A stretch of DNA of 64,000 bases from assembly GCA_963555755.3 (NCBI GenBank), contig OY820905.2:2112001-2176000 (forward strand). The letters run 5' to 3'. Of the stretch, positions 47,913 through 64,000 are shown in pieces. The number at the start of each line of letters is the position of its first letter. The stretch's first letter is position 1. The stretch is from Nitrospirales bacterium. GTDB lineage: Bacteria; Nitrospirota; Nitrospiria; Nitrospirales; UBA8639. The notes below the pieces were generated by a model, which saw nothing but the letters and a program-made list of their open reading frames with translations, was not told the DNA's origin and did not search any database. Made by a program: the position numbers and the translations under genes.

Positions 47913-48016
47913 GTAGAGTAGAGCACTGGTGCATACATGGAGCTGCTCTCGAACGCTTCGACGCACGCGTCTACCACGGACCATAGCAGTCAGCACTTCC
48001 CAGCGCCCCCTCATCA

Positions 48017-50010
48017 GTAGGGTCGAGGACTGGCGCGCCAACGGTAGGGTTCGGTGGCTCCTCCACCCCTTTCGGAATGGGCCTCAGTCCGACTCCCCTG
48101 GTCACGGTTCCAGTCCCCGCCACCTCAAACCCGGCGTGCTGATTTCCAGCACCGGGCTTTCCTGGATGCTTCACCTCAAGGGTTATGTGACCTATCAGCC
48201 TGGAAGGACTTTCATGCCGACCCGTTGTACCGCACTCGGTAATCTCCATATAAGCCAAGTACCGTGTAGAGCCAAACCTTACTCCACCTCTTCCAGCCAA
48301 AACCTCGACGGTGGCGCACTCGCATCATGTGCCGCCGGACCTTCCGCTCCACCCAATCCTTCACGTAGGATAAACACCGACTCGCATGCCCAATCCGGAA
48401 GTCGTTCACCCAGCCCCGTACGATCGGATTGATCATGGCGATCATCCGTCCCACCGGCTGGGATTGCCCGCGTCGGAACACTTCCTTGAGCTTCCGCAGC
48501 AACGCGGTGCGCCGCTTCACCTTCGGTATGTACTGCGGGCGCCACACTCCACGCCGCGACCGCACACGCCGAAAGTCAAAGCCCAGAAAGCCGAAGCTGC
48601 CTCCCTGACTCAGGTCCACGATTCGGCTCTTCTCCTCATTCACCTGAAGGTCTAATTGGGCCAACGCCTCTCGCAGCTTCCGCTCCGCAACCTGCGCCAG
48701 TTGTGCGTGGCGGCGATAGCCATCCACTAACACGACGAGGTCATCCGCAAACCGGACATACTCGAGATACGTATACTGGCCCTGCCGGGTTGTCTCCTTC
48801 AGCTGCTCCAGCCTCTCATCCACTTCCGTGAGATAGAGGTTGGCCAGCAGCGGGGAAATCACACCCCCTTGAGGCACCCCACGCGGGCCGGACGCCTTGA
48901 CGATGAGTTTCACCAGCCGCAGGATCGCGGGATCCTGGATGCGTCGGGCCACCTTCGCCAGCAGCCGGTCATGCCGCACCGTGTCGAAGAAGGCCGCCAG
49001 ATCCACATCAATCACTCGCGTCTTGTTCTGCACCATCGCCTGAGCCACCCGGCCAATCGCCTGATGGGCTGTCCGTTTCGGTCGATACCCATACGACCCG
49101 TCCCGAAAATCCGCCTCAAAGATCGGTTCCAGCAGGAGCTTGAGCGCTCCCTGTACCACGCGGTCCCGAATCGCGGGTATCCCTAAGACGCGGACTCGTC
49201 CACCGCCTTTCGAAATCTCCACGTGCCGGTTCCGCATCGGTCGGTAGGTCTGCGTGACCAGTTCGTCCCGTAGTCGTGCAAGAAAGGGCTCCACCCCCGT
49301 GGCCTCGATGCCAGCAAACGTCACCCCATCAATGCCGGGGGCTCCGTTGTTTTTCTTGGCCATCGAATAGGCCGCGCGTAGCGTCGCCTCTTTGCACACG
49401 TGGACGTACAAGCCCCACACCCGCCATCGCTTCTCAGCCTTCGCCTTGACGTAGAGCCGCTGTCGCAGGTCTTGCAGTGTAATGGACGCCGTTGTCATCT
49501 CGTCCCTGCCTCCCATGTTGATCACAGCCTACAGCCAGTAGGGCTCCTTTGCTCCACAGGCATGACCCTGCTTCCTCGCTCCTACGAGCCCCTCCGCCAC
49601 CCTCTCGTCTTCGGCTCACTTCCCAGAGAGCTGGTTATAGAGCCGATCTTCCTCCAGGGATTTCTCCCTGGGACGAGGAGGGCTTCTCCAGTTGCGTCGT
49701 CTGTCCTTGCTCCCGTGCTGTCGCTCTCACCCCGCCGGAGTGGCCAGGCGTCTCAGCCTTGGTTCGCCTGTCCATGCCGTCTTCGTCCTACGGACAGGGA
49801 CTCGACCTCCGAGGTTTCATACTTTCGAGGCTACCTCTGCGTTCACTTGCGTTACGGCCCGGGAACTCGCTCACCATCCTCTACGATGGCTTTGTCGATG
49901 GGCTTCAGCGTCTCGGTTTCTCTCCACGCTGCCATCCAAGCTACAGGGCTCAGGCTCTTACCCTGGTGGGCTTGCTTCCCACTGAACAGTCTCGCCTTAC
50001 CTGGACACAC
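48017..50010 (-). mobile_element. Group II intron, tandem copy A (1994 bp)
   Basis: 5' GTGTG, DV AAGCCCGGTGCTGGAAATCAGCACGCCGGGTTT, 3' CGACCCTAC. Confidence 0.93.
48212..49525 (-). CDS. ltrA: Group II intron reverse transcriptase/maturase, no endonuclease domain
   Basis: GAPGIDG, LGIPAIRDRVVQ, SYGYRP, GVPQGGVISPLLANLYL, RFADD, FLGF, domain X. Confidence 0.95.
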   Translation of the reverse strand: MINMGGRDEMTTASITLQDLRQRLYVKAKAEKRWRVWGLYVHVCKEATLRAAYSMAKKNNGAPGIDGVTFAGIEATGVEPFLARLRDELVTQTYRPMRNRHVEISKGGGRVRVLGIPAIRDRVVQGALKLLLEPIFEADFRDGSYGYRPKRTAHQAIGRVAQAMVQNKTRVIDVDLAAFFDTVRHDRLLAKVARRIQDPAILRLVKLIVKASGPRGVPQGGVISPLLANLYLTEVDERLEQLKETTRQGQYTYLEYVRFADDLVVLVDGYRRHAQLAQVAERKLREALAQLDLQVNEEKSRIVDLSQGGSFGFLGFDFRRVRSRRGVWRPQYIPKVKRRTALLRKLKEVFRRGQSQPVGRMIAMINPIVRGWVNDFRIGHASRCLSYVKDWVERKVRRHMMRVRHRRGFGWKRWSKVWLYTVLGLYGDYRVRYNGSA

Positions 50011-52004
50011 GTAGGGTCGAGGACTGGCGCGCCAACGGTAGGGTTCGGTGGCTCCTCCACCCCTTTCGGAATGGGCCTCAGTCCGACTCCCCTGGTCACG
50101 GTTCCAGTCCCCGCCACCTCAAACCCGGCGTGCTGATTTCCAGCACCGGGCTTTCCTGGATGCTTCACCTCAAGGGTTATGTGACCTATCAGCCTGGAAG
50201 GACTTTCATGCCGACCCGTTGTACCGCACTCGGTAATCTCCATATAAGCCAAGTACCGTGTAGAGCCAAACCTTACTCCACCTCTTCCAGCCAAAACCTC
50301 GACGGTGGCGCACTCGCATCATGTGCCGCCGGACCTTCCGCTCCACCCAATCCTTCACGTAGGATAAACACCGACTCGCATGCCCAATCCGGAAGTAGTT
50401 CACCCAGCCCCGTACGATCGGATTGATCATGGCGATCATCCGTCCCACCGGCTGGGATTGCCCGCGTCGGAACACTTCCTTGAGCTTCCGCAGCAACGCG
50501 GTGCGCCGCTTCACCTTCGGTATGTACTGCGGGCGCCACACTCCACGCCGCGACCGCACACGCCGAAAGTCAAAGCCCAGAAAGCCGAAGCTGCCTCCCT
50601 GACTCAGGTCCACGATTCGGCTCTTCTCCTCATTCACCTGAAGGTCTAATTGGGCCAACGCCTCTCGCAGCTTCCGCTCCGCGACCTGCGCCAGTTGTGC
50701 GTGGCGGCGATAGCCATCCACTAACACGACGAGGTCATCCGCAAACCGGACATACTCGAGATACGTATACTGGCCCTGCCGGGTTGTCTCCTTCAGCTGC
50801 TCCAGCCTCTCATCCACTTCCGTGAGATAGAGGTTGGCCAGCAGCGGGGAAATCACACCCCCTTGAGGCACCCCACGCGGGCCGGACGCCTTGACGATGA
50901 GTTTCACCAGCCGCAGGATCGCGGGATCCTGGATGCGTCGGGCCACCTTCGCCAGCAGCCGGTCATGCCGCACCGTGTCGAAGAAGGCCGCCAGATCCAC
51001 ATCAATCACTCGCGTCTTGTTCTGCACCATCGCCTGAGCCACCCGGCCAATCGCCTGGTGGGCTGTCCGTTTCGGTCGATACCCATACGACCCATCACGA
51101 AAATCCGCCTCAAAGATCGGTTCCAGCAGGAGCTTGAGCGCTCCCTGTACCACGCGGTCCCGAATCGCGGGTATCCCTAAGACGCGGACTCGTCCACCGC
51201 CTTTCGAAATCTCCACGTGCCGGTTCCGCATCGGTCGGTAGGTCTGCGTGACCAGTTCGTCCCGTAGTCGTGCAAGAAAGGGCTCCACCCCCGTGGCCTC
51301 GATGCCAGCAAACGTCACCCCATCAATGCCGGGGGCTCCGTTGTTTTTCTTGGCCATCGAATAGGCCGCGCGTAGCGTCGCCTCTTTGCACACGTGGACG
51401 TACAGGCCCCACACCCGCCATCGCTTCTCAGCCTTCGCCTTGACGTAGAGCCGCTGTCGCAGGTCTTGCAGTGTAATGGACGCCGTTGTCATCTCGTCCC
51501 TGCCTCCCATGTTGATCACAGCCTACAGCCAGTAGGGCTCCTTTGCTCCACAGGCATGACCCTGCTTCCTCGCTCCTACGAGCCCCTCCGCCACCCTCTC
51601 GTCTTCGGCTCACTTCCCAGAGAGCTGGTTATAGAGCCGATCTTCCTCCAGGGATTTCTCCCTGGGACGAGGAGGGCTTCTCCAGTTGCGTCGTCTGTCC
51701 TTGCTCCCGTGCTGTCGCTCTCACCCCGCCGGAGTGGCCAGGCGTCTCAGCCTTGGTTCGCCTGTCCATGCCGTCTTCGTCCTACGGACAGGGACTCGAC
51801 CTCCGAGGTTTCATACTTTCGAGGCTACCTCTGCGTTCACTTGCGTTACGGCCCGGGAACTCGCTCACCATCCTCTACGATGGCTTTGTCGATGGGCTTC
51901 AGCGTCTCGGTTTCTCTCCACGCTGCCATCCAAGCTACAGGGCTCAGGCTCTTACCCTGGTGGGCTTGCTTCCCACTGAACAGTCTCGCCTTACCTGGAC
52001 ACAC
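50011..52004 (-). mobile_element. Group II intron, tandem copy B
   Basis: Directly abuts copies A and C (..CCCTAC|GTGTG..). Confidence 0.93.
50206..51519 (-). CDS. ltrA: Group II intron reverse transcriptase/maturase
   Basis: As copy A, but WVNYF instead of WVNDF. Confidence 0.95.
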   Translation of the reverse strand: MINMGGRDEMTTASITLQDLRQRLYVKAKAEKRWRVWGLYVHVCKEATLRAAYSMAKKNNGAPGIDGVTFAGIEATGVEPFLARLRDELVTQTYRPMRNRHVEISKGGGRVRVLGIPAIRDRVVQGALKLLLEPIFEADFRDGSYGYRPKRTAHQAIGRVAQAMVQNKTRVIDVDLAAFFDTVRHDRLLAKVARRIQDPAILRLVKLIVKASGPRGVPQGGVISPLLANLYLTEVDERLEQLKETTRQGQYTYLEYVRFADDLVVLVDGYRRHAQLAQVAERKLREALAQLDLQVNEEKSRIVDLSQGGSFGFLGFDFRRVRSRRGVWRPQYIPKVKRRTALLRKLKEVFRRGQSQPVGRMIAMINPIVRGWVNYFRIGHASRCLSYVKDWVERKVRRHMMRVRHRRGFGWKRWSKVWLYTVLGLYGDYRVRYNGSA

Positions 52005-53998
52005 GTAGGGTCGAGGACTGGCGCGCCAACGGTAGGGGTCGGTGGCTCCTCCACCCCTTTCAGAGTGGGCCTCAATCCGACTCCCCTGGTCACGGTTCCA
52101 GTCCCCGCCACCTCAAACCCGGCGTGCTGATTTCCAGCACCGGGCTTTCCTGGATGCTTCACCTCAAGGGTTATGTGACCTATCAGCCTGGAAGGACTTT
52201 CATGCCGACCCGTTGTACCGCACTCGGTAATCTCCATATAAGCCAAGTACCGTGTAGAGCCAAACCTTACTCCACCTCTTCCAGCCAAAACCTCGACGGT
52301 GGCGCACTCGCATCATGTGCCGCCGGACCTTCCGCTCCACCCAATCCTTCACGTAGGATAAACACCGACTCGCATGCCCAATCCGGAAGTAGTTCACCCA
52401 GCCCCGTACGATCGGATTGATCATGGCGATCATCCGTCCCACCGGCTGGGATTGCCCGCGTCGGAACACTTCCTTGAGCTTCCGCAGCAACGCGGTGCGC
52501 CGCTTCACCTTCGGTATGTACTGCGGGCGCCACACTCCACGCCGCGACCGCACACGCCGAAAGTCAAAGCCCAGAAAGCCGAAGCTGCCTCCCTGACTCA
52601 GGTCCACGATCCGGCTCTTCTCCTCATTCACCTGAAGGTCTAATTGGGCCAACGCCTCTCGCAGCTTCCGCTCCGCAACCTGCGCCAGTCGTGCGTGGCG
52701 GCGATAGCCATCCACTAACACGACGAGGTCATCCGCAAACCGGACATACTCGAGATACGTATACTGGCCCTGCCGGGTTGTCTCCTTCAGCTGCTCCAGC
52801 CTCTCATCCACTTCCGTGAGATAGAGGTTGGCCAGCAGCGGGGAAATCACACCCCCTTGAGGCACCCCACGCGGGCCGGACGCCTTGACGATGAGTTTCA
52901 CCAGCCGCAGGATCGCGGGATCCTGGATGCGTCGGGCCACCTTCGCCAGCAGCCGGTCATGCCGCACCGTGTCGAAGAAGGCCGCCAGATCCACATCAAT
53001 CACTCGCGTCTTGTTCTGCACCATCGCCTGAGCCACCCGGCCAATCGCCTGATGGGCTGTCCGTTTCGGTCGATACCCATACGACCCGTCCCGAAAATCC
53101 GCCTCAAAGATCGGTTCCAGCAGGAGCTTGAGCGCTCCCTGTACCACGCGGTCCCGAATCGCGGGTATCCCTAAGACGCGGACTCGTCCACCGCCTTTCG
53201 AAATCTCCACGTGCCGGTTCCGCATCGGTCGGTAGGTCTGCGTGACCAGTTCGTCCCGTAGTCGTGCAAGAAAGGGCTCCACCCCCGTGGCCTCGATGCC
53301 AGCAAACGTCACCCCATCAATGCCGGGGGCTCCGTTGTTCTTCTTCGCCATCGCATAGGCCGCGCGTAGCGTCGCCTCTTTGCACACGTGGACGTACAGG
53401 CCCCACACCCGCCATCGCTTCTCAGCCTTCGCCTTGACGTAGAGCCGCTGTCGCAGGTCTTGCAGTGTAATGGACGCCGTTGTCATCTCGTCCCTGCCTC
53501 CCATGTTGATCACAGCCTACAGCCAGTAGGGCTCCTTTGCTCCACAGGCATTACCCTGCTTCCTCGCTCCTACGAGCCCCTCCGCCACCCTCTCGTCTTC
53601 GACTCACTTCCCAGAGAGCTGGTTATAGAGCCGATCTTCCTCCAGGGATTTCTCCCTGGGACGAGGAGGGCTTCTCCAGTTGCGTCGTCTGTCCTTGCTC
53701 CCGTGCTGTCGCTCTCACCCCGCCGGAGTGGCCAGGCGTCTCAGCCTTGGTTCGCCTGTCCATGCCGTCTTCGTCCTACGGACAGGGACTCGACCTCCGA
53801 GGTTTCATACTTTCGAGGCTACCTCTGCGTTCACTTGCGTTACGGCCCGGGAACTCGCTCACCATCCTCTACGATGGCTTTGTCGATGGGCTTCAGCGTC
53901 TCGGTTTCTCTCCACGCTGCCATCCAAGCTACAGGGCTCCGGCTCTTACCCTGGTGGGCTTGCTTCCCACTGAACAGTCTCGCCTTACCTGGACACAC
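52005..53998 (-). mobile_element. Group II intron, tandem copy C
   Basis: Its 5' end abuts the host intron DV hairpin. Confidence 0.93.
52200..53513 (-). CDS. ltrA: Group II intron reverse transcriptase/maturase
   Basis: As copy B, with AAYAM and HARLA variants. Confidence 0.95.
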   Translation of the reverse strand: MINMGGRDEMTTASITLQDLRQRLYVKAKAEKRWRVWGLYVHVCKEATLRAAYAMAKKNNGAPGIDGVTFAGIEATGVEPFLARLRDELVTQTYRPMRNRHVEISKGGGRVRVLGIPAIRDRVVQGALKLLLEPIFEADFRDGSYGYRPKRTAHQAIGRVAQAMVQNKTRVIDVDLAAFFDTVRHDRLLAKVARRIQDPAILRLVKLIVKASGPRGVPQGGVISPLLANLYLTEVDERLEQLKETTRQGQYTYLEYVRFADDLVVLVDGYRRHARLAQVAERKLREALAQLDLQVNEEKSRIVDLSQGGSFGFLGFDFRRVRSRRGVWRPQYIPKVKRRTALLRKLKEVFRRGQSQPVGRMIAMINPIVRGWVNYFRIGHASRCLSYVKDWVERKVRRHMMRVRHRRGFGWKRWSKVWLYTVLGLYGDYRVRYNGSA

Positions 53999-54701
53999 AT
54001 CCGTGCGTATGGTTTTCCCATACACGGCTTTCCGATGTTCTTCTTCCAGCGGCATGCGTCTGTCATCAGGCAATAGCCACATTCAGACTTGGCCTTCTGA
54101 GATAGTTTCCTCTGTAGTGTCCTGATCGTGCTCGGGGTGGTTAGCGCAATGGCAATCCCCTGATCCTCCACTCGTCGGAAACGTGAACAAAGTAGGGTCC
54201 CTTCCCTCGGGCCGGGTTGTGTTGTCCCAGGCTCTCCAACGGTACTATGAACCCCTCCGACTCCCACGACGGCCCGCAGCGATTTCGGTATCCCTTATAC
54301 GCCTCAGTTGCTGGTTCTGCGCCAGCACCGTCGCGGGTCTCCCGTCCTGCACGGTGTCTCTTCCGCCACATGCCATCCCTGCTACCCCGGAAGATCCTGA
54401 GGGTGGGTGTTCGTTCTACTCCCTCAAACGGCGGCCTTCCCCTTCTGACCACAGGGTCGGCATCTCCAATTCGTTTACGAGGCTACATCTAGGTTCGCTT
54501 GCGCTACGGCCTGCGGCTTTGCCCATGGGAAACTTCAACCCCTGATTACTCAGACGCTGCTTCCTGGTGCTAGAAAGGTGTACGAACAACTCCTTTCGCG
54601 GGACTTCAACCCGCTAGACACACCGCCGATGACGGCATGCGGTCAAGTCACTTGCTTCATGATAAAGAAAAGGAAAAGGGGTCAGAAAAGGGGTCAGAAA
54701 A

Positions 54702-55734
54702 GGGGTCAAGTCACTTGCTTCATGATAAAAAAGTAGTTAGACTCTGGTCATGCCTCGACCTCCTCGGATGGAATACGAGCATGCGGTGTATCATGTCATG
54801 AATCGTGGCCGGGCTCGGCACCCGGTGTTTCATGATGCCCGGTACTATCGAGCCTTTCTCGACACGTTGGCCGAGCTGCATACCCGCTTCCAGGGTGTGA
54901 TTCATGCCTATTGCTTGATGGGCAATCACTATCATGTCTTGCTGGAAACTCCCAGGGCCAATCTCAGTCGCATGATGCGCCATCTTAACGGGGTGTATAC
55001 GCAACGGCATAATCGTCTCAAACGTACTGATGGCTCTTTGTTTCGAGGCCGCTATAAAGCCATTTTGGTGGAGCACGATGCCTATTTGCTCCACGTGTCC
55101 CGGTATATCCATCGAAACCCTCTTGACGGCATACGGCCGCTGGTCACGAATTTGTCTGATTATCCCTGGTCGAGCTATCCGACATATATCGGTCAAGCGA
55201 AGCCGGCACCGTGGTTGTGCCGGGAACCGACGTATCGCCTGCTTGGGCATGTGCACCGGTATCGCGGGTATGCTCGCTACGTGCTAGAGGGCAACGATAA
55301 AGAAATCGAGTATTTTTCCCAACGGGGTAATAGGGCGGCCATTATGGGAGGGCAGGAGTTCAAATCTTGGGTCTATGACGAATTACTGCCGGATCTTGAA
55401 GCGGAGGAGAAAGGGCAGGTGATCCAGCCGAGTCTTGCAATCGACACTATGATCACTGGGGTGGCCAAGGCCTATCGCACGACACCAGACCGGCTGACCA
55501 TGGTAGTGAAAGGGCCGCAAAAAGGGAATGAGGCTCGGAAACTGGCGATGTATCTGTGTCAGGAATTAGCGGATGTGAAACTTCAGGACATTGCGCCCTG
55601 CTTCCATCTGCGTCATAGCGGTTCGGTGAGTTTTATCACCCACCAGGTCAGAAAGAAGAAACGAGACGAGAAGGGATTTGCCGCTAGAATGAACGAGGTG
55701 ATTGAAAGTATTCTGAAGCAATCGACTTGACCCC
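54702..55734 (+). mobile_element. TIR-bounded HUH/Y1 (RAYT-like) element, copy 1
   Basis: Left GGGGTCAAGTCACTTGCTTCA and right TGAAGCAATCGACTTGACCCC are inverted at 19/21 positions; GAAAAGGGGTCA x3 on the left. Confidence 0.88.
54750..55730 (+). CDS. Y1/HUH (RAYT-like) transposase with C-terminal DnaA-like HTH
   Basis: YHVMNRG, YCLMGNHYH (HUH), LFRGRYKA, YIHRNP, YPWSSY; C-terminal ARKLAMYLCQE..LQDIAPCF..SVS. Confidence 0.92.
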   Translation: MPRPPRMEYEHAVYHVMNRGRARHPVFHDARYYRAFLDTLAELHTRFQGVIHAYCLMGNHYHVLLETPRANLSRMMRHLNGVYTQRHNRLKRTDGSLFRGRYKAILVEHDAYLLHVSRYIHRNPLDGIRPLVTNLSDYPWSSYPTYIGQAKPAPWLCREPTYRLLGHVHRYRGYARYVLEGNDKEIEYFSQRGNRAAIMGGQEFKSWVYDELLPDLEAEEKGQVIQPSLAIDTMITGVAKAYRTTPDRLTMVVKGPQKGNEARKLAMYLCQELADVKLQDIAPCFHLRHSGSVSFITHQVRKKKRDEKGFAARMNEVIESILKQST

Positions 55735-56190
55735 TATTCGACCCCTATTCTTGACCCCTATTCATAGGGCGGCCATTATGGGAGGGCAGGAGTTCAAATC
55801 TTGGGTCTATGACGAATTACTGCCGGATCTTGAAGCGGAGGAGAAAGGGCAGGTGATCCAGCCGAGTCTTGCAATCGACACTATGATCACTGGGGTGGCC
55901 AAGGCCTATCGCACGACACCAGACCGGCTGACCATGGTAGTGAAAGGGCCGCAAAAAGGGAATGGGGCTCGGAAACTGGCGATGTATCTGTGTCAGGAAT
56001 TAGCGGATGTGAAACTTCAGGACATTGCGCCCTGCTTCCATCTGCGTCATAGCGGTTCGGTGAGTTTTATCACCCACCAGGTCAGAAAGAAGAAACGAGA
56101 CGAGAAGGGATTTGCCGCTAGAATGAACGAGGTGATTGAAAGTATTCTGAAGCAATCGACTTGACCCCTATTTGACTTGACCCCTATTTT
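55735..56190 (+). repeat. 3'-coterminal duplications of the Y1 element end (including a ~400-bp copy of the gene 3' part)
   Basis: GACCCCTATTC units, then 55765-56168 repeats 55330-55734, then GACTTGACCCCTATT. Confidence 0.9.
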
Positions 56191-57812
56191 ATTATGTCAT
56201 AAACAATTTGTAACGTTAATTATAGTACAAAACCTATATTGAGAAATCATTTAGCGATCAAAAAATTGATCAAAATTAATTAAAATTAGCCCTAACAAAG
56301 TGAATTTTCTTATTTTTCCGATCTCCACATTTTGTTCGATTCTTAAATAGTTTATAGTTATACCAGTTTTGTTGAGTGGTCATAGTAGAAGTCAGCTAAT
56401 GTTATTTTTATTAACTTTGACATCTTTAGGATTTCTTGGATTTTTGTCTTATGATGTTTTTGCTGAACCTACATTCACACTTGAGTGGGATGGAACTTCA
56501 CAACATGATAATACCGTAAATGTTGGTGACACTATTGCTTGGGAATGGATTGGTCTTCAACATAATTTAGTATGGGATGACGAAACAGGAGTTCCTCTAC
56601 CTGATCCATCGTTTGGATTTCCAGATATCGTTGATGAACCAAATACCTACGCATTTACATTTACTGAACCTGGAGAATACTATTATCACTGTACAATTCA
56701 TTCAGAGCAATCTGGTGTTGTAACTGTTCTACCGTCGCCTATCACACTTGAGTGGGATGGAACTTCACAACATGATAATACCGTAAATGTTGGTGACACT
56801 ATTGCTTGGGAATGGATTGGTCTTCAACATAATTTAGTATGGGATGACGAAACAGGAGTTCCTCTACCTGATCCATCGTTTGGATTTCCAGATATCGTTG
56901 ATGAACCAAATACCTACGCATTTACATTTACTGAACCTGGAGAATACAACTATCACTGTACAGTCCATGAAGAACAATTTGGAGTTGTAATTGTTGAATC
57001 ATCTGAAGAACCTGTACTTGCTTGGGCTGGATCTTCACAACATGATAATACCGTAAATGTTGGTGATACACTTACTTGGGAATGGGGTGGAAATAGTCAT
57101 AATTTAGTATGGGATCCAGAATCAGGAGTTCCTCTACCTGATCCATCATTTGGATTTCCAGATATTGTTAATGCTCCAAATACATACGCATTTACATTTA
57201 CTGAACCTGGACAATACTTCTATCACTGTGAAGTTCACTCACAACAATTTGGAGTTGTAACTGTTCTACCGCCAGCAAGTTGGCCAAACTGGGGAGGGGA
57301 CTTGTCTAACACAAAGAATGCCTCAACCGAATCTCAACTGTCTCCTGATAATATTGACGCTCTCATAGAAGATTGGATATACACCACTGATGGCTCTGTA
57401 GTTTCATTTGTTACTGTTCAAGGAAATGATGCATACTTTGTTAGTAGAGTAACTCCTGATGGTCAATCTTTTCCTGCAGCAGATGCAATGCTTAATTCTA
57501 TTAATCGTATAACTGGAGAACTCAATTGGGCATTCCCAATTTCAAGTTATGTTGAATCCTCATCTAATCCATCTCTTGTAAATGATGATGCTAGAGTCTC
57601 ACCTGCAATACAAGATGATATTTTAGTTGTGGGTACACAATATGCAGCAAATGGTGCAACTGTCTTTGCAGTTGACAGAAACACTGGCGATGAACTTTGG
57701 GAAACTGCAGTAGATGATCACATATATTCTATAATCACAAGCTCTCCTACAATTTATCAGGATAGAGTCTATGTTGGTGTTTCTTCTCTTGAAGAATTAT
57801 GGGCAGGAATTA

Positions 57813-59399
57813 CCCAAGATCCGCGATGGGTTTGGTCAACAGAGGTCCTTTGGCAAAACCCACGTGTTCGCGCCATTGCTTAGTCAATGGTCTGGCTGGA
57901 TTTGAGCCACCTCCCAGAGTTGCCTGTCCTGACATGGGATCGACCAGCCTTTTGGGCAGACCACTCCCTTCCTGCTTCCTTCTTCTCTTGTGCTGTCCCC
58001 TGCCCCGGCTTAATAAGGCTGGGCAGCTTCTGCACAGCGCGTCCGAATCTCCTCACACAAGCCCCACAGCTGTTGTTGCACTTTGAGGATCACGGCACCA
58101 GCATGCCGGACCACTTTGCCCGCCACCTGATACAGCCGCCAACGCACCGTGCGCACTTGGCACTGGCTCCAGGCATAGGGCAACGCCAACAACTTGAACA
58201 ACACAAACAGGTTGTAGGCTAACACGCCAATGCGAAAGAAGACGGCATTGGCCGCGAAGGTCCCACACGGAAGCCGTTCCATGCCAAAGCCACTCTTCAG
58301 TTCTTTGATGCGATTCTCGCTGGTCTCGCCCCGCTGGTTGTACCATCGTACAATCTCCTCAGGGGTTCCATCTCGGTTCGTCGCAATCAGCGTGTAGCGC
58401 AGGCTGGGGGCCTCGGGGGCAAACAGATCCTGTTGCACGGGCCGTCGCAATACGATGAGGCGAAAGGCTTGCTTGGTCTTCGCCATACAATGTACCGTTT
58501 CAGCGAGATGGCCATCTCGGTAGGGTTGCCACTGGCTCTCAGGGATGGCGGCAATGACGGCCTGCACGGCCGTATCCTGCACGCCCCCAATCGCAAACGT
58601 CACGTTGTGCTCCTCGCACCAATTGAACAACTCCGCTTGGTACGCCGCACTATCCGCCCGCACATGAGCAATCCGTTTGCCTTTGGGCATCTGCGCCGCA
58701 CACGCCTGGGTGAATTCAAGATTGCGGGACGCCGGAGCCTCATTCCCTTCACGAAACTCCTCCCCAAGCACCAGCCCATTTTCCGCCAGGTGCCCCAGCA
58801 TCGGCAGATAGCCTCGCTCCCCCTTGTACGTCCATTTGGCTGCCTGCTTCTCCGCGACAATCTGCGTGGCATCAAGATCGAGGGTATAGTCCGTGCGCGG
58901 TTCCCGCTTCAACGCCCGCCGGATCTGCTGCTGATTGACGACGGCTAAACTTGCTAAACCATCCTTCTCCCCCATGCGTCGCAGCCAATCGCCCGTGGCA
59001 TCGGCACTGGGAACCACGGGGAGTCGCAGCACGGCCCGCAAGCCCGCATCCTCGCGAATCTGGCGCAGATCCTCCAGCGTCCGGCCCCCGCCATGCAACA
59101 TCAGCAGCAGGGGCTCGACAAATTGGGCGGGGTGATAGCCGATGCGGCTCCCGGGCGCGGGCAAGGCCGCATTGAGTTGCCGGGGCACATTCATGGCTTG
59201 GAGAAACTCCCCGAACAGCGCCAGCCCGCCATGAGCGGTGAGCTGTTCGTCGGTGGGCTCAAGCTTGAACGGAAGAACGGTTTGTGGCATCATTCGTTTC
59301 ACCTCGTTGGTGAGGAGTGGCTAAGGGGGTAGGCACCCGTATCTTAGCAAATCAACGAGGTTTTTTTATGCCCAAAATAAATCCATCGCGGATCTTGGG
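57813..59399 (-). mobile_element. IS1380-family element, complete
   Basis: TIRs CCCAAGATCCGCGATGG; 5-bp TSD AATTA at 57808-57812 and 59400-59404. Confidence 0.95.
58010..59302 (-). CDS. IS1380-family transposase
   Basis: LTAHGGL, LDLDAT, VRADSA, YNQRGETSENRIKELK, LAYNL. Confidence 0.93.
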   Translation of the reverse strand: MKRMMPQTVLPFKLEPTDEQLTAHGGLALFGEFLQAMNVPRQLNAALPAPGSRIGYHPAQFVEPLLLMLHGGGRTLEDLRQIREDAGLRAVLRLPVVPSADATGDWLRRMGEKDGLASLAVVNQQQIRRALKREPRTDYTLDLDATQIVAEKQAAKWTYKGERGYLPMLGHLAENGLVLGEEFREGNEAPASRNLEFTQACAAQMPKGKRIAHVRADSAAYQAELFNWCEEHNVTFAIGGVQDTAVQAVIAAIPESQWQPYRDGHLAETVHCMAKTKQAFRLIVLRRPVQQDLFAPEAPSLRYTLIATNRDGTPEEIVRWYNQRGETSENRIKELKSGFGMERLPCGTFAANAVFFRIGVLAYNLFVLFKLLALPYAWSQCQVRTVRWRLYQVAGKVVRHAGAVILKVQQQLWGLCEEIRTRCAEAAQPY

Positions 59400-61365
59400 A
59401 ATTATTCCTGACTATGATTGTTGTACCTTTATTGGTAGTTTAGTGTCCCTTGATTTGAATACTGGTGATATATTGTGGAAATCTTATACTGCACCACTTT
59501 TACCTGAAGGTACACTTCCTAGTGATTGGTATTCAGGTAATGCTGTTTGGGGAAGCTCACCATCAATTGATCCATCACGAAATTCTGTATACATAGCAAC
59601 AGGTAACAACTATCAAACCCCAAATGACTTGGAAGAATGTATTGCAAATGCAGAAACATTACCTACTCCTGAAGAAGTTGAAGCTGCAAAACTGATTTGT
59701 CAAGAAGACATTGATGTTCCAGGAAATCTATTTGATGCTATAGTCTCTTATGATCTTGATACAGGAGATGTAAACTGGGCTAACAAACTATGGAGTTCAG
59801 ACTCTTGGAATGTTGCTTGCTTCTTGGGAGGTGAAAACTGTCCAGATCCATTTGCACCTGACTATGACTTTGGCCAAGCTCCTATGCTCTTTACAGTGTT
59901 TGTAGATGATGACCCAGTAGATCTAGTAGGTTCCGGTCAAAAGAGTGGAATCTTCTGGGCGCTTGATCGTGATATTGGAGAAATTGTTTGGACTGTTAAT
60001 CCTGGACCTGGAAGTACACTTGGAGGTATGCAATGGGGATCAGCAGTTGATGATCAAAGAGTTTATGGTCAAATAACAGGTACTGATGAAGCAGGACCAT
60101 ATACCATTTTTGATTTTGAAGGTACTCCAACTGTAATTACTGGTGGTTCATGGTGGGCAGTAGATGCTGCAACTGGAGAATTACTTTGGCAAACTGCAGC
60201 ACCTGATGGCAGTTTAACATGGGGACAAGTCAGCGTAGCTAATGGATTATTATTTGCTGGAACTTTGGGTAATGCTCAAGATGGTATGATGGTTATTATG
60301 GATGCTGCAACAGGTGATATCCTTTGGACAAAAGACATTGGCGGTTCTGTTTCTGCAGCTCCTACAATTGTTAATGGCCAACTAATCTGGCCAACTGGAT
60401 ATGGAGGCTTTGGCGGTTCTTACAATAATGAAATATTTGCATTTAGTTTAGAATCAATTGGAATTGATTTTGATAATGATGGATTTACTGAAGAAGAAGA
60501 TTGTGATGATAATAATCCTGAGATAAATCCAGATGCATTTGATATTCCAAATAACGGCATTGATGAAAATTGTGATGGAGTAGATGCACAAGGTGGTGGT
60601 GTGGACCTTAGTGGAGTATTAGATGCAATTGAAGATGCAAAGACTATGATACTTGATGCACTAGGATTACTTGATATAAAATTAGATCAAGTTTCTGAAA
60701 AGATTGACAACATTGATACAGGTTCTGATAGTGTAGAACGAGTTTCAGTAACTGTGAAGATGCCAGGTGTTGTAATGAAACCAGGTGAAGTGTTTGTACT
60801 ATTAGATACAACTGGTTCTGGAACTTTAGAAACAGTTCATGTTGCAGTTAATTTACCATGTTCAAAAAATAACGAGCCAAGATTCTCAGTACTGGCAGGA
60901 GTTGCAGGTGGTTCACTAGAACCAGTAATTAGCAGTTCTGATGACTTTACTGGATTTAAGGGACCAAAGAAGACCTGCACATTCCATGATACAATACTTG
61001 CAAGTGAAGTTCCAGGTGGAGAAATTACTGATGTTATTTTAATCAATGATGGAAACAAAAAATCTACTTTACCAAGATATTCAGTAGTAACCATAACTGG
61101 TACATATTCTCCTTGATTTTATTTTTATTAATTTTACGCCTAGATAAAATTAGAGTGTCAATGTGATCTGACAAATCGCCCTCCCAGTGTCATGATTTAA
61201 GGCAAAAATTGTAAGGGTCTTGAACTAACTTGACAAGTCACCTCGAGGGCCTACATTTTTTGGTTAAAGACTCTCACATTACATTTCATTCTAAAATTAG
61301 TGTAAACTTCAGTAAAGCACCCTAGATAAATACGAGATAATTTTATTAAAAAAGGGGTCAAAAAA

Positions 61366-62398
61366 GGGGTCAAGTCACTTGCTTCATGATAAAAAAGTAG
61401 TTAGACTCTGGTCATGCCTCGACCTCCTCGGATGGAATACGAGCATGCGGTGTATCATGTCATGAATCGTGGCCGGGCTCGGCACCCGGTGTTTCATGAT
61501 GCCCGGTACTATCGAGCCTTTCTCGACACGTTGGCCGAGCTGCATACCCGCTTCCAGGGTGTGATTCATGCCTATTGCTTGATGGGCAATCACTATCATG
61601 TCTTGCTGGAAACTCCCAGGGCCAATCTCAGTCGCATGATGCGCCATCTTAACGGGGTGTATACGCAACGGCATAATCGTCTCAAACGTACTGATGGCTC
61701 TTTGTTTCGAGGCCGCTATAAAGCCATTTTGGTGGAGCACGATGCCTATTTGCTCCACGTGTCCCGGTATATCCATCGAAACCCTCTTGACGGCATACGG
61801 CCGCTGGTCACGAATTTGTCTGATTATCCCTGGTCGAGCTATCCGACATATATCGGTCAAGCGAAGCCGGCACCGTGGTTGTGCCGGGAACCGACGTATC
61901 GCCTGCTTGGGCATGTGCACCGGTATCGTGGGTATGCTCGCTACGTGCTAGAGGGCAACGATAAAGAAATCGAGTATTTTTACCAACGGGGCAATAGGGC
62001 GGCCATTATGGGAGGGCAGGAGTTCAAATCTTGGGTCTATGACGAATTACTGCCGGATCTTGAAGCGGAGGAGAAAGGGCAGGTGATCCAGCCGAGTCTT
62101 GCAATCGACACTATTATCACTGGGGTGGCCAAGGCCTATCGCACGACACCAGACCGGCTGACCATGGTAGTGAAAGGGCCGCAAAAAGGGAATGAGGCTC
62201 GGAAACTGGCGATGTATCTGTGTCAGGAATTAGCGGATGTGAAACTTCAGGACATTGCGCCCTGCTTCCATCTGCGTCATAGCGGTTCGGTGAGTTTTAT
62301 CACCCACCAGGTCAGAAAGAAGAAACGAGACGAGAAGGGATTTGCCGCTAGAATGAACGAGGTGATTGAAAGTATTCTGAAGCAATCGACTTGACCCC
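61366..62398 (+). mobile_element. TIR-bounded HUH/Y1 element, copy 2
   Basis: Same TIRs as copy 1; AAAAAGGGGTCA x2 on the left. Confidence 0.88.
61414..62394 (+). CDS. Y1/HUH (RAYT-like) transposase with C-terminal HTH
   Basis: Differs from 54750-55730 at two residues. Confidence 0.92.
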   Translation: MPRPPRMEYEHAVYHVMNRGRARHPVFHDARYYRAFLDTLAELHTRFQGVIHAYCLMGNHYHVLLETPRANLSRMMRHLNGVYTQRHNRLKRTDGSLFRGRYKAILVEHDAYLLHVSRYIHRNPLDGIRPLVTNLSDYPWSSYPTYIGQAKPAPWLCREPTYRLLGHVHRYRGYARYVLEGNDKEIEYFYQRGNRAAIMGGQEFKSWVYDELLPDLEAEEKGQVIQPSLAIDTIITGVAKAYRTTPDRLTMVVKGPQKGNEARKLAMYLCQELADVKLQDIAPCFHLRHSGSVSFITHQVRKKKRDEKGFAARMNEVIESILKQST

Positions 62399-62668
62399 TA
62401 TTGCTGAAGCAATCGACTTGACCCCTATTTCCTATTTTTGACCCCTATTTCTATTTCCTATTTTGACCCCTATTTCTAGAATGAACGAGGTGATTGAAAG
62501 TATTCTGAAGCAATCGACTTGACCCCTATTTCCTATTTTGACCCCTATTTGAAGCAATCGACTTGACCCCTATTTCTATTTCCTATTTTGACCCCTATTT
62601 CTAGAATGAACGAGGTGATTGAAAGTATTCTGGAGCAATCGACTTGACCCCTATTTGACCCCTATTTT
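62391..62668 (+). repeat. Array of 10 TTGACCCCTATT ends made of nested co-terminal copies
   Basis: Units of ~11-55 bp, all finishing GACCCCTATT. Confidence 0.92.
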
Positions 62669-62965
62669 GCCCCCCATACATTGCCTTTGCATAGCGCCAA
62701 GATAATTCACCACCGCCAGTTTCTTCACCGTCAACGTACACTCGCCTAAGTCTTCTTCGACTAAGCCTTCCACGAGATACGGCTTTCCGCCGGTTAGCAC
62801 ATGGCCGTATTTTCGAAAGGTCGCGGGAAAGAACGTGGCATCGTAGAGGCCAGTGAGGTCTTCGAAGGTGGTAAATTCCATGGGCTGGCCGTTGTTCATT
62901 TCAGCAAACTTTTCCGTTATCAACCAGACGACCATTCTGACTTGCTTGCCGGCGTAGCGGTGTAT
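62669..62965 (-). pseudogene. DNA polymerase III alpha (DnaE-type) C-terminal OB-fold fragment
   Basis: GKQVRMVVWLIT..GQPMEFTTFEDLTGLYDATFFP..YLVEGLVE. Confidence 0.7.
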
Positions 62966-63078
62966 CTCCGAGGGTGGACTTGACCGGTGCCTTCCAATGA
63001 ATGCCCCCCCTTTCCATGCAGCCAACGCCAATGGATAATTCTTTTTACGGCAAAAACAAAAACTGGATGGGGGGGGGG

Positions 63079-63513
63079 TTACCGGCGTATGGGAAGACGC
63101 CAATCAGCAAGAAGACGCACATGGCCAAGACGTCCAGCGCGTTTGAAATAATCTCGATCGGCAGTGACATATACTCCATCAGACTGGAGTGCCACCACAT
63201 GGTAACAACTATCATAAAACGTCACCCCTTTGATCTCTCGCATAAGCTGAAGCACCGCTTGACAGTCGTCAACTGTCAGATGAACTTCTGGAAGCTCATA
63301 GTCCAGAAGCGCACTCATCAGTTCAGCAGCAAGTTCAGGTTGTTTCAAACCTAGAACATTCCCAACTTCATAACGCCACAACGTCGGCACCTGAAGGTCA
63401 ATCGCCTCGGAAAGGAACGCCCGTTGAAGCTCAAGAGCCTTCGGAAGATCCTTCCCCTCATCTCGTTCTAGAACCCATTTCAGGATTACAGAGGCATCCG
63501 GCACTACAATCAT
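63079..63513 (-). CDS. vapC: VapC-family PIN-domain toxin
   Basis: VPDASVILKW, YEVGN, TFYDSCY, VTAD. Confidence 0.9.
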   Translation of the reverse strand: MIVVPDASVILKWVLERDEGKDLPKALELQRAFLSEAIDLQVPTLWRYEVGNVLGLKQPELAAELMSALLDYELPEVHLTVDDCQAVLQLMREIKGVTFYDSCYHVVALQSDGVYVTADRDYFKRAGRLGHVRLLADWRLPIRR

Positions 63514-63520
63514 AAGGAAG

Positions 63521-63745
63521 TCACCTTCGTCGATCTCGGCGGACCAAGGCCACAATCTCTTCACTCTTCAACTTGGCGCTTCTAGTGCGCAACTGTTGGA
63601 TTTGTTTCCTCGCGGTTTCACGTTTCCGCCGAAGCAACTCCTTACGTAAGGCCTCATTGATCACCTGACTGCGCTTTCGCGCTGGCACAAGCTTCAGCAG
63701 GTCTTCCCGCACGTCTTCATCAATGGACACATTCATCTTAGGCAT
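63521..63745 (-). CDS. Ribbon-helix-helix antitoxin (VapB-like)
   Basis: KMNVSIDEDV..RSQVINEALR; directly upstream of the PIN gene. Confidence 0.8.
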   Translation of the reverse strand: MPKMNVSIDEDVREDLLKLVPARKRSQVINEALRKELLRRKRETARKQIQQLRTRSAKLKSEEIVALVRRDRRR

Positions 63746-63826: not shown

Positions 63827-63924
63827 GGCGTCAGGGCCCATTTTTCCTTACCCAATAGTTCATGGATTCTAGTCAGTATGGCTAGTTATCAATTCTCAAG
63901 AGAGAAGAAAAGGTTCCTGACACC
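63827..63924. mobile_element. ~100-bp mini-element with GG(C/T)GTCAGG inverted ends
   Basis: GGCGTCAGGGCCCATTTTT ... AAAAGGTTCCTGACACC. Confidence 0.5.
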
Positions 63925-64000
63925 TTTTGCCCAAGATGGGTGCGCGGTGATGCACGTTTGTTGATTTGGACCGATAAGGGCCAACTGGTGGACGGTCAGC

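Follow-up and report, generated by a model that had tools for sequence, protein, structure and literature searches.

Nested arrays of partial tip copies extend the ends of a TIRtron transposable element in a Nitrospirales genome, each unit being a suffix of the element's end that stops a few bases outside the terminal inverted repeat. Judging from the sequences compared here, these arrays are likely to be scars of single-strand nicking by the element's enzyme just outside the tip, and are likely to mark the place and the strand that are cut by this family of enzymes. The window, the whole 64,000 nt stretch of DNA that was analysed, holds two of the genome's three near-identical copies of the element, flanked by arrays on both sides:

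54641..54696, + strand: left-end array of copy 1, comprising two 12 nt units, one 6 nt unit (54667) and a 26 nt remnant cut by a group II intron
54698..55738, + strand: TIRtron copy 1, with four differences from copy 2 and a transposase ORF at 54750-55730
55740..56189, + strand: right-end array of copy 1, with units of 11, 13, 410 (55764-56173) and 16 nt
61349..61360, + strand: left-end array of copy 2, a single 12 nt unit with a register ambiguous by one base
61362..62402, + strand: TIRtron copy 2, 1,041 bp, with 25 bp imperfect terminal inverted repeats matching at 22/25 positions
61414..62394, + strand: transposase gene of copy 2, an open frame of 326 aa with a Y1_Tnp domain and a DnaA-domain-IV-like C-terminus
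62404..62667, + strand: right-end array of copy 2, made up of 15 nested right-end suffixes, 6-56 nt long

The 1,041 bp element fits the TIRtrons (TIRYT class), a known class that the original prediction had not named. Its transposase (copy 2) matches the Pfam Y1_Tnp family above the cut-off (E = 2e-12), with a C-terminus that scores just below the cut-off for Bac_DnaA_C (E = 4e-7; 30.4 bits, cut-off 31.5); the NCBIfam REP_Tyr_transpos profile gives 62.7 bits, below its cut-off of 80. Both H60 and H62 of the H60-Y61-H62 motif, together with Y119, are invariant in 17/17 aligned sequences, and Y119 is taken, by its position, to be the catalytic tyrosine. The structural model used was folded from aligned sequences (pLDDT 86), a single-sequence fold having been discarded (pLDDT 38); its best fold match is TnpA_REP (4ER8), followed by matches to the IS608 and ISDra2 transposases, and its C-terminus resembles the DnaA-DBD 3PVP (DnaA domain IV; TM 0.89 over the target). 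No DnaA boxes were found within the TIRtron.

The three copies in the genome lie 4-6 bases apart in sequence and share the same 25 bp inverted repeats with a GGGGTCA core, and the element looks recently mobile because these near-identical copies have different flanks. More diverged transposases are also present, as are many gene-less miniature elements with similar ends. Read depth over the TIRtron was 467 in one run, as compared with 80-100 over single-copy parts, a value that is not taken as a copy number.

TIRtrons were described by Di Nocera et al. 2013 (PMC3733652) and are matched to TnpA_REP subclass 2.1.2 of Quentin et al. 2018 (PMC6006769). In the parts of these papers drawn upon, the class shares with the present element a RAYT-like Y1 transposase with a Bac_DnaA_C-like C-terminus, a gene flanked by terminal inverted repeats that have a GGGGTCA core and are unrelated to REPs, and a genome in which single and paired repeats are dispersed; by its C-terminal domain as well, the element fits the description of subclass 2.1.2. 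The sequence GGGGTCAA fits GGGGWSAS at 7/8 positions, the eighth base being A rather than C/G, and this motif is reported in PMC3733652 for some or most TIRtron members, not all. Inspection of the ends revealed none of the GTAG-tagged hairpin REPs or BIMEs that would flank the gene in a REPtron (RAYT groups 2 and 3).

The array behind copy 2 is the most elaborate in the window, with units in the order 27, 7, 13, 6, 7, 12, 56, 7, 12, 25, 6, 7, 12, 56 and 11 nt. All fifteen consist of a right-end suffix plus one base and end 4-5 nt past TGACCCC, with one mismatch overall; one of the 56 nt units is marked by a private mismatch. The original prediction had counted ten terminal motifs after copy 2, and TTGACCCCTATT does occur ten times at 62391-62655, but the first occurrence is the element's own terminus. 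Unit lengths had been put at about 11 to 55 bp, whereas the shortest is 6 nt and the longest 56 nt, six units of 6-7 nt having been missed. Some units were correctly described as copies of composites, an 81 nt block recurring with one mismatch (62451-62531 and 62576-62656). A search of possible histories found that ten end-anchored tandem duplications, some of which recopy earlier units, suffice to build the fifteen-unit array from a bare end with no deletion, when the mismatch and the innermost junction base are counted as later changes. That innermost base is G, the other fifteen being T, which calls for either a subsequent change or an error at the junction. The odd base was also considered as a relic of a previous insertion site; this suits copy 1 and fails for copy 2, because there the 56 nt units must derive from the innermost end yet carry T.

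Similar arrays adjoin the other copies. The long right-hand unit of copy 1, originally placed at 55765-56168 with a length of about 400 bp, exists, but its true span is 55764-56173 (410 nt). The left ends mirror the right as had been claimed, with GAAAAGGGGTCA at 54673, 54685 and 54697 and the 6 nt unit at 54667, and the duplicate inverted repeat noticed at 54641 is confirmed as a unit (54641-54666) interrupted by the group II intron. Copy 3 has one right-end unit. The likening of such growth to telomeres serves as an image only: telomerase adds a fixed unit from an RNA template at the end of linear DNA, whereas these units vary from 6 to 410 nt, are intrachromosomal and belong to an element with no reverse transcriptase (RT), and no telomere-like function was seen.

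Arrays are found at 57/450 YTGACCCC sites in the genome, against 3/1500 control sites consisting of a C-run without TGA. Among related loci, 30 of which were chosen by their repeat pattern, the corresponding figures are 82/515 motif sites and 24/1500 controls, and when loci were chosen by protein alone, 52 of the 174 with the motif had an array (33 at a stricter score). The isolate genomes of Paraglaciecola and Alkalimonas have long nested units at both ends; arrays are borne by gene-less miniature copies and by both element ends. From these comparisons, nested end arrays are a real and general feature of TIRtrons.

The outer breakpoint had been proposed to be fixed 4-5 nt past CCCC. This is so for 34/35 outermost units in this genome, but for only 30/59 in relatives, where 46/59 units fit 4-7 nt and the range extends from 4 to 13 nt. 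The inner breakpoint had been thought free; instead, there is a hotspot at TGA, which accounts for 41/62 events here and 47/84 in relatives, and which persists when the outer breakpoint lies 6-13 nt out (20/40 events). With these corrections, 'one fixed, one free' is an adequate first approximation for this genome. The single non-templated base at the junctions equals the base following the unit in 21/24 cases here and 19/21 in relatives, so many units include one base of the flank. Where a flank has a homologue elsewhere, the target sequence begins just after the fourth base at 15/22 ends, a few of these being long internal units. No clear dinucleotide rule emerged at either breakpoint. The parser demanded an own-end tail in each unit, and thus its finding of 0/50 units with the partner's tail is a weak count. 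Tandem units of kilobase size at the ends were rejected, the matches of 436-907 bp being only partial, and the tandem units that withstood scrutiny were just those of about 95 and 116 nt; two of the partial matches stop at what, from their motif, we take to be ends of other insertion sequences.

Homology at the junctions is enriched but dispensable. It is absent from 8/35 junctions here (19 expected) and 22/59 in relatives (33 expected), and at least 4 nt long at 5/35 and 3/59 respectively; 1-3 nt of microhomology is over-represented, with means, capped at 5, of 1.94 against 0.77 expected here and 1.14 against 0.72 in relatives.

The ends also serve as targets for a group II intron, and the DNA beside the arrays contains further features:

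47913..54640, - strand: group II intron in the outermost left unit of copy 1 (insertion point TGACC^CC), within which three RT-encoding group II introns of 1,994 bp are nested
56190..61348, + strand: DNA between copies 1 and 2, with 37-38% GC against 51% for the genome, containing a gene for cupredoxin and PQQ beta-propeller domains that IS1380 interrupts
58010..59302, - strand: IS1380 family transposase inside the inter-copy segment, outside the mechanism discussed below

Insertions of this intron (Rfam D1-D4-6) into TIRtron-type ends have upstream junctions that end TGACC in 12/12 cases and downstream junctions that begin CC in 16/17, and the four readable junctions in relatives all agree, five further loci being unreadable. 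The unit at 54641 is cut because the intron inserts at TGACC^CC. A GGTCAG sequence in the 5' part of the intron is a candidate exon-binding site by its predicted pairing, and the intron's first bases are GCATG, unlike the usual group II start of GTGYG. The two halves of the target of the intron in the window derive from different end families, which suggests rearrangement between intron copies. The three 1,994 bp introns are stacked within it at 48010-54004. Between copies 1 and 2, placed like the cargo of a composite transposon, the low-GC gene encodes three cupredoxin repeats and a PQQ beta-propeller, its best relatives sharing 67-68% identity across 61% of the C-terminal part; an archaeal origin, guessed from codon style, was dropped when a homologue search gave no archaeal source. 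An OB-fold gene fragment (62651-63103) abuts the copy 2 array, and a PIN-domain gene on the minus strand (63079-63718) has a short upstream frame as a putative partner, in a toxin-antitoxin-like arrangement. A short inverted repeat, AAAAGGTTCCTGACACCTTTT, at 63909-63929 resembles the ends of another RAYT-type family.

The arrays are stacks of partial tip copies that probably arise through nicking, inward extension by a polymerase and religation to a tip bearing a 5'-phosphotyrosine. The C-terminal domain of the transposase would bind the inverted repeat, and Tyr119 would nick the strand 5'-(N)AAAAGGGGTCA or 5'-(N)AATAGGGGTCA, 4-5 nt outside GGGG. Cleavage by HUH enzymes yields a 5'-phosphotyrosine and a 3'-OH; in this case the former would be on the tip and the latter on the flank, pointing into the element. 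A host polymerase would extend the flank's 3'-OH inward over 6 to 410 nt, displacing the strand ahead of it; most often, synthesis would halt, or the new strand would be cut, directly behind GGGGTCA. The new 3'-OH would then attack the phosphotyrosine, helped by pairing of 1-3 nt that is not required, and replication would fix the extra copy. Because each unit would recreate the nick site, later rounds could recopy earlier units and give rise to nested composites. Such a nick gives a fixed outer end, needs no homology and works alike at both inverted ends, and the match between the junction base and the one following the unit is what would be seen were one flank base part of the copy. The nicked strand, which would be that carrying GGGGTCA, is deduced from polarity, and the bias of unpaired ends towards the lagging-strand template (54/64; see below) points to the same strand. 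No Ku gene was found, which makes classical end-joining unlikely. The same scheme has been put forward for TnpA_REP: in Fig. 7B of PMC3333891, a BIME unit is added through a nick, extension and attack on the 5'-phosphotyrosine, with a second cut freeing the 3'-OH, and a passage of PMC3479197 notes that any 3'-OH could resolve the 5'-phosphotyrosine link.

The proposal made at the outset, of nicking with strand transfer or re-priming rather than slippage, stands in so far as the breakpoints are end-anchored, the enzyme is of the HUH nickase type and plain slippage fails, but it sits less easily with the enriched microhomology and the inner hotspot. The hotspot may represent a further cleavage or, equally well, stalling against bound protein; its retention even with outer breakpoints at 6-13 nt could indicate that a second, or the primary, cut falls at TGA, with synthesis proceeding outward.

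Synthesis in the opposite direction from the same nick, with the nicked or protein-blocked strand serving as the end of the template, would run off 4-5 nt past CCCC, slip back on 1-3 nt and recopy the end, the fork restarting on the intact sister, and is rather unlikely. It accounts equally well for a fixed outer and a variable inner breakpoint; the enrichment of microhomology, which counts against nicking with inward extension and religation, fits slip-back priming, as does the joining of T-runs by many of the 11-12 nt units. However, with a null share of about 55%, the homology-free junctions (8/35 and 22/59) would imply that some 40-70% of events need no pairing, and homology does not exceed 1 nt for the units of 410 nt and 138 nt.

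It is improbable that the arrays were formed without synthesis, by two transposase cuts, an outer one beyond the tip and an inner one within it, chiefly after GGGGTCA, with subsequent unequal exchange of strands by sister copies or re-insertion of a short linear fragment. The concentration of inner breakpoints (41/62 and 47/84 events) is what two cuts would produce, and many unpaired ends match other ends over only 17-40 nt, but inner breakpoints off the hotspot have no dinucleotide preference, at only 6 and 7 junctions, the missing target half was not found beside unpaired ends, and 6 nt units are too short for circles. In its favour, TnpA_REP cuts distant dinucleotides and recombines them in the in vitro experiments reported in PMC3333891 and PMC3479197.

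Very improbable is slippage or recombination in the pyrimidine-rich tract independently of the transposase: the T-run overlaps at 11-12 nt units would suit it, and a few junctions with 8-16 nt of homology fit later expansion of existing units, but arrays occur at just 3/1500 control C-run sites, and neither the common outer breakpoint, nor the mirrored ends, nor long units with at most 1 nt of homology would be expected. Hardly credible is that an RT encoded by a group II intron copies transcripts that stop at the tip, the copies being linked through template switching; RT-encoding introns adjoin copy 1, one intron targets these ends and one-base joins are a trait of group II intron RTs, but arrays at both ends and on gene-less miniatures would presuppose that transcripts of either sense stop at an identical offset, and arrays are present in 52/174 related loci, counted irrespective of the introns in their genomes.

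Contigs from public runs span 62603-62760 without differences and at single-copy-like depth in 3/4 runs, the contig from the fourth run spanning 62630-62760 with one difference, and such contigs also span the outer units of copy 1 (56144-56504); the runs may be the source of the assembly. Runs with a low word share were left aside, apart from a single use of run X1. The recurrence of arrays across the genome and in 52/174 related loci means that an assembly artefact, named in advance as a result that would count against the original prediction, has next to no likelihood: the inner short units of the copy 2 array fall outside every listed contig, but outer units and flank lie in single contigs, the pattern recurs in independently assembled genomes and metagenomes, and one 56 nt unit has its private mismatch.

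Unpaired ends in the genome are oriented with respect to replication. In 54/64 cases the GGGGTCA strand lies on the lagging-strand template (37 against 8 when counted as clusters; background 57%, p = 4e-4), or 53:11 when the origin is set at dnaA (2.916 Mb), and the bias holds on both replichores, whichever way the neighbouring genes run; part of this set may be ends of larger elements. Fork direction has no effect on the presence of arrays (34/92 against 17/50, p = 0.85), and among paired ends arrays are no commoner at those the fork enters (15/29 against 13/30), so the strand bias does not extend to the arrays.

A search of this genome found an empty site for 0/29 paired ends, and the boundaries of transposition consequently rest on one-sided comparisons. 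The left flank and the right flank could not be traced to a single target, and no missing target half was found beside elements with a flank homologue. Target duplications were detected for 1/91 pairs in the genome (2,025 bp) and for 0/198 pairs in related loci, where no more than 1.5 kb of flank was available. The single case is an exact 2,025 bp direct repeat flanking three miniature TIRtrons, flush with both ends (4098342-4108415 of the genome contig). The same ends also delimit gene-less miniatures, 80-150 bp long, that form direct-orientation clusters around unrelated DNA, with arrays that differ per copy (for instance at 88386-96864, 2217840-2226496 and 4096396-4106390 of the genome contig).

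A broader and more doubtful, if possible, interpretation is that TIRtrons move by capture of 3'-OH ends, each tip acting as an independent 5'-phosphotyrosine adaptor that is ligated to nearby nascent 3' ends, mostly at replication forks. Self-capture would give nested arrays, and capture elsewhere would give strand-biased unpaired ends, mismatched flanks, the 2,025 bp duplication and the bracketed low-GC genes of foreign origin.

Comparison with known systems places the element among Y1 transposons with some departures. The treatments of BIME amplification by TnpA_REP in REPtrons (Ton-Hoang et al. 2012, PMC3333891; Messing et al. 2012, PMC3479197), as far as they were drawn upon, describe an enzyme of the same fold and propose the same chemistry, with one more tandem unit per round; by contrast, BIME units are of like size at each locus and GTAG hairpins are cut at CT, whereas TIRtron units range from 6 to 410 nt, need not hold the whole recognition site and share an outer breakpoint whose position follows from its distance to a repeat that is not palindromic. 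The IS200/IS605 elements IS608 and ISDra2 share the Y1 HUH chemistry and, in the accounts used, target the lagging-strand template, the strand towards which unpaired TIRtron ends are biased; TIRtron ends differ in being inverted repeats of each other, and precise peel-and-paste may be at odds with the 0/29 empty sites in this genome and flanks of differing origin. Replitrons (Craig 2023, PMC10288648) are likewise described as HUH transposons with fuzzy ends and variable target duplications, comparable to the 2,025 bp duplication here, but in that description they are eukaryotic, with a CRESS-type Rep and short direct terminal repeats. For TIRtrons themselves, the text of PMC3733652 and PMC6006769 describes single, dimeric and grouped repeats, with no nested suffix arrays, breakpoints, strand bias or mechanism in the parts drawn upon, and PMC3733652 names cleavage of the repeats by the TIRYT enzyme as future work. 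The literature searched yielded no account of nested end arrays, their breakpoints, the strand bias or an intron targeting the ends, which the figures or supplements of these two papers may show; the element class itself is known.

An open transposase in three near-identical copies constitutes a ready assay substrate, and a 25 bp target combined with homology-free ligation of 3' ends could serve as a tool for joining or recording DNA. If TIRtrons do move by capture of 3'-OH ends, this would be a separate mode of HUH transposition, differing from both rolling circle and peel-and-paste, and the enzyme's past cuts could be read off the arrays. For the family, the arrays would be natural products of the nicking, extension and religation proposed for BIME amplification, and they predict, without experiment, the nicked strand, its offset (4-5 nt here and up to 13 nt in relatives), an inner hotspot and a weak need for homology.
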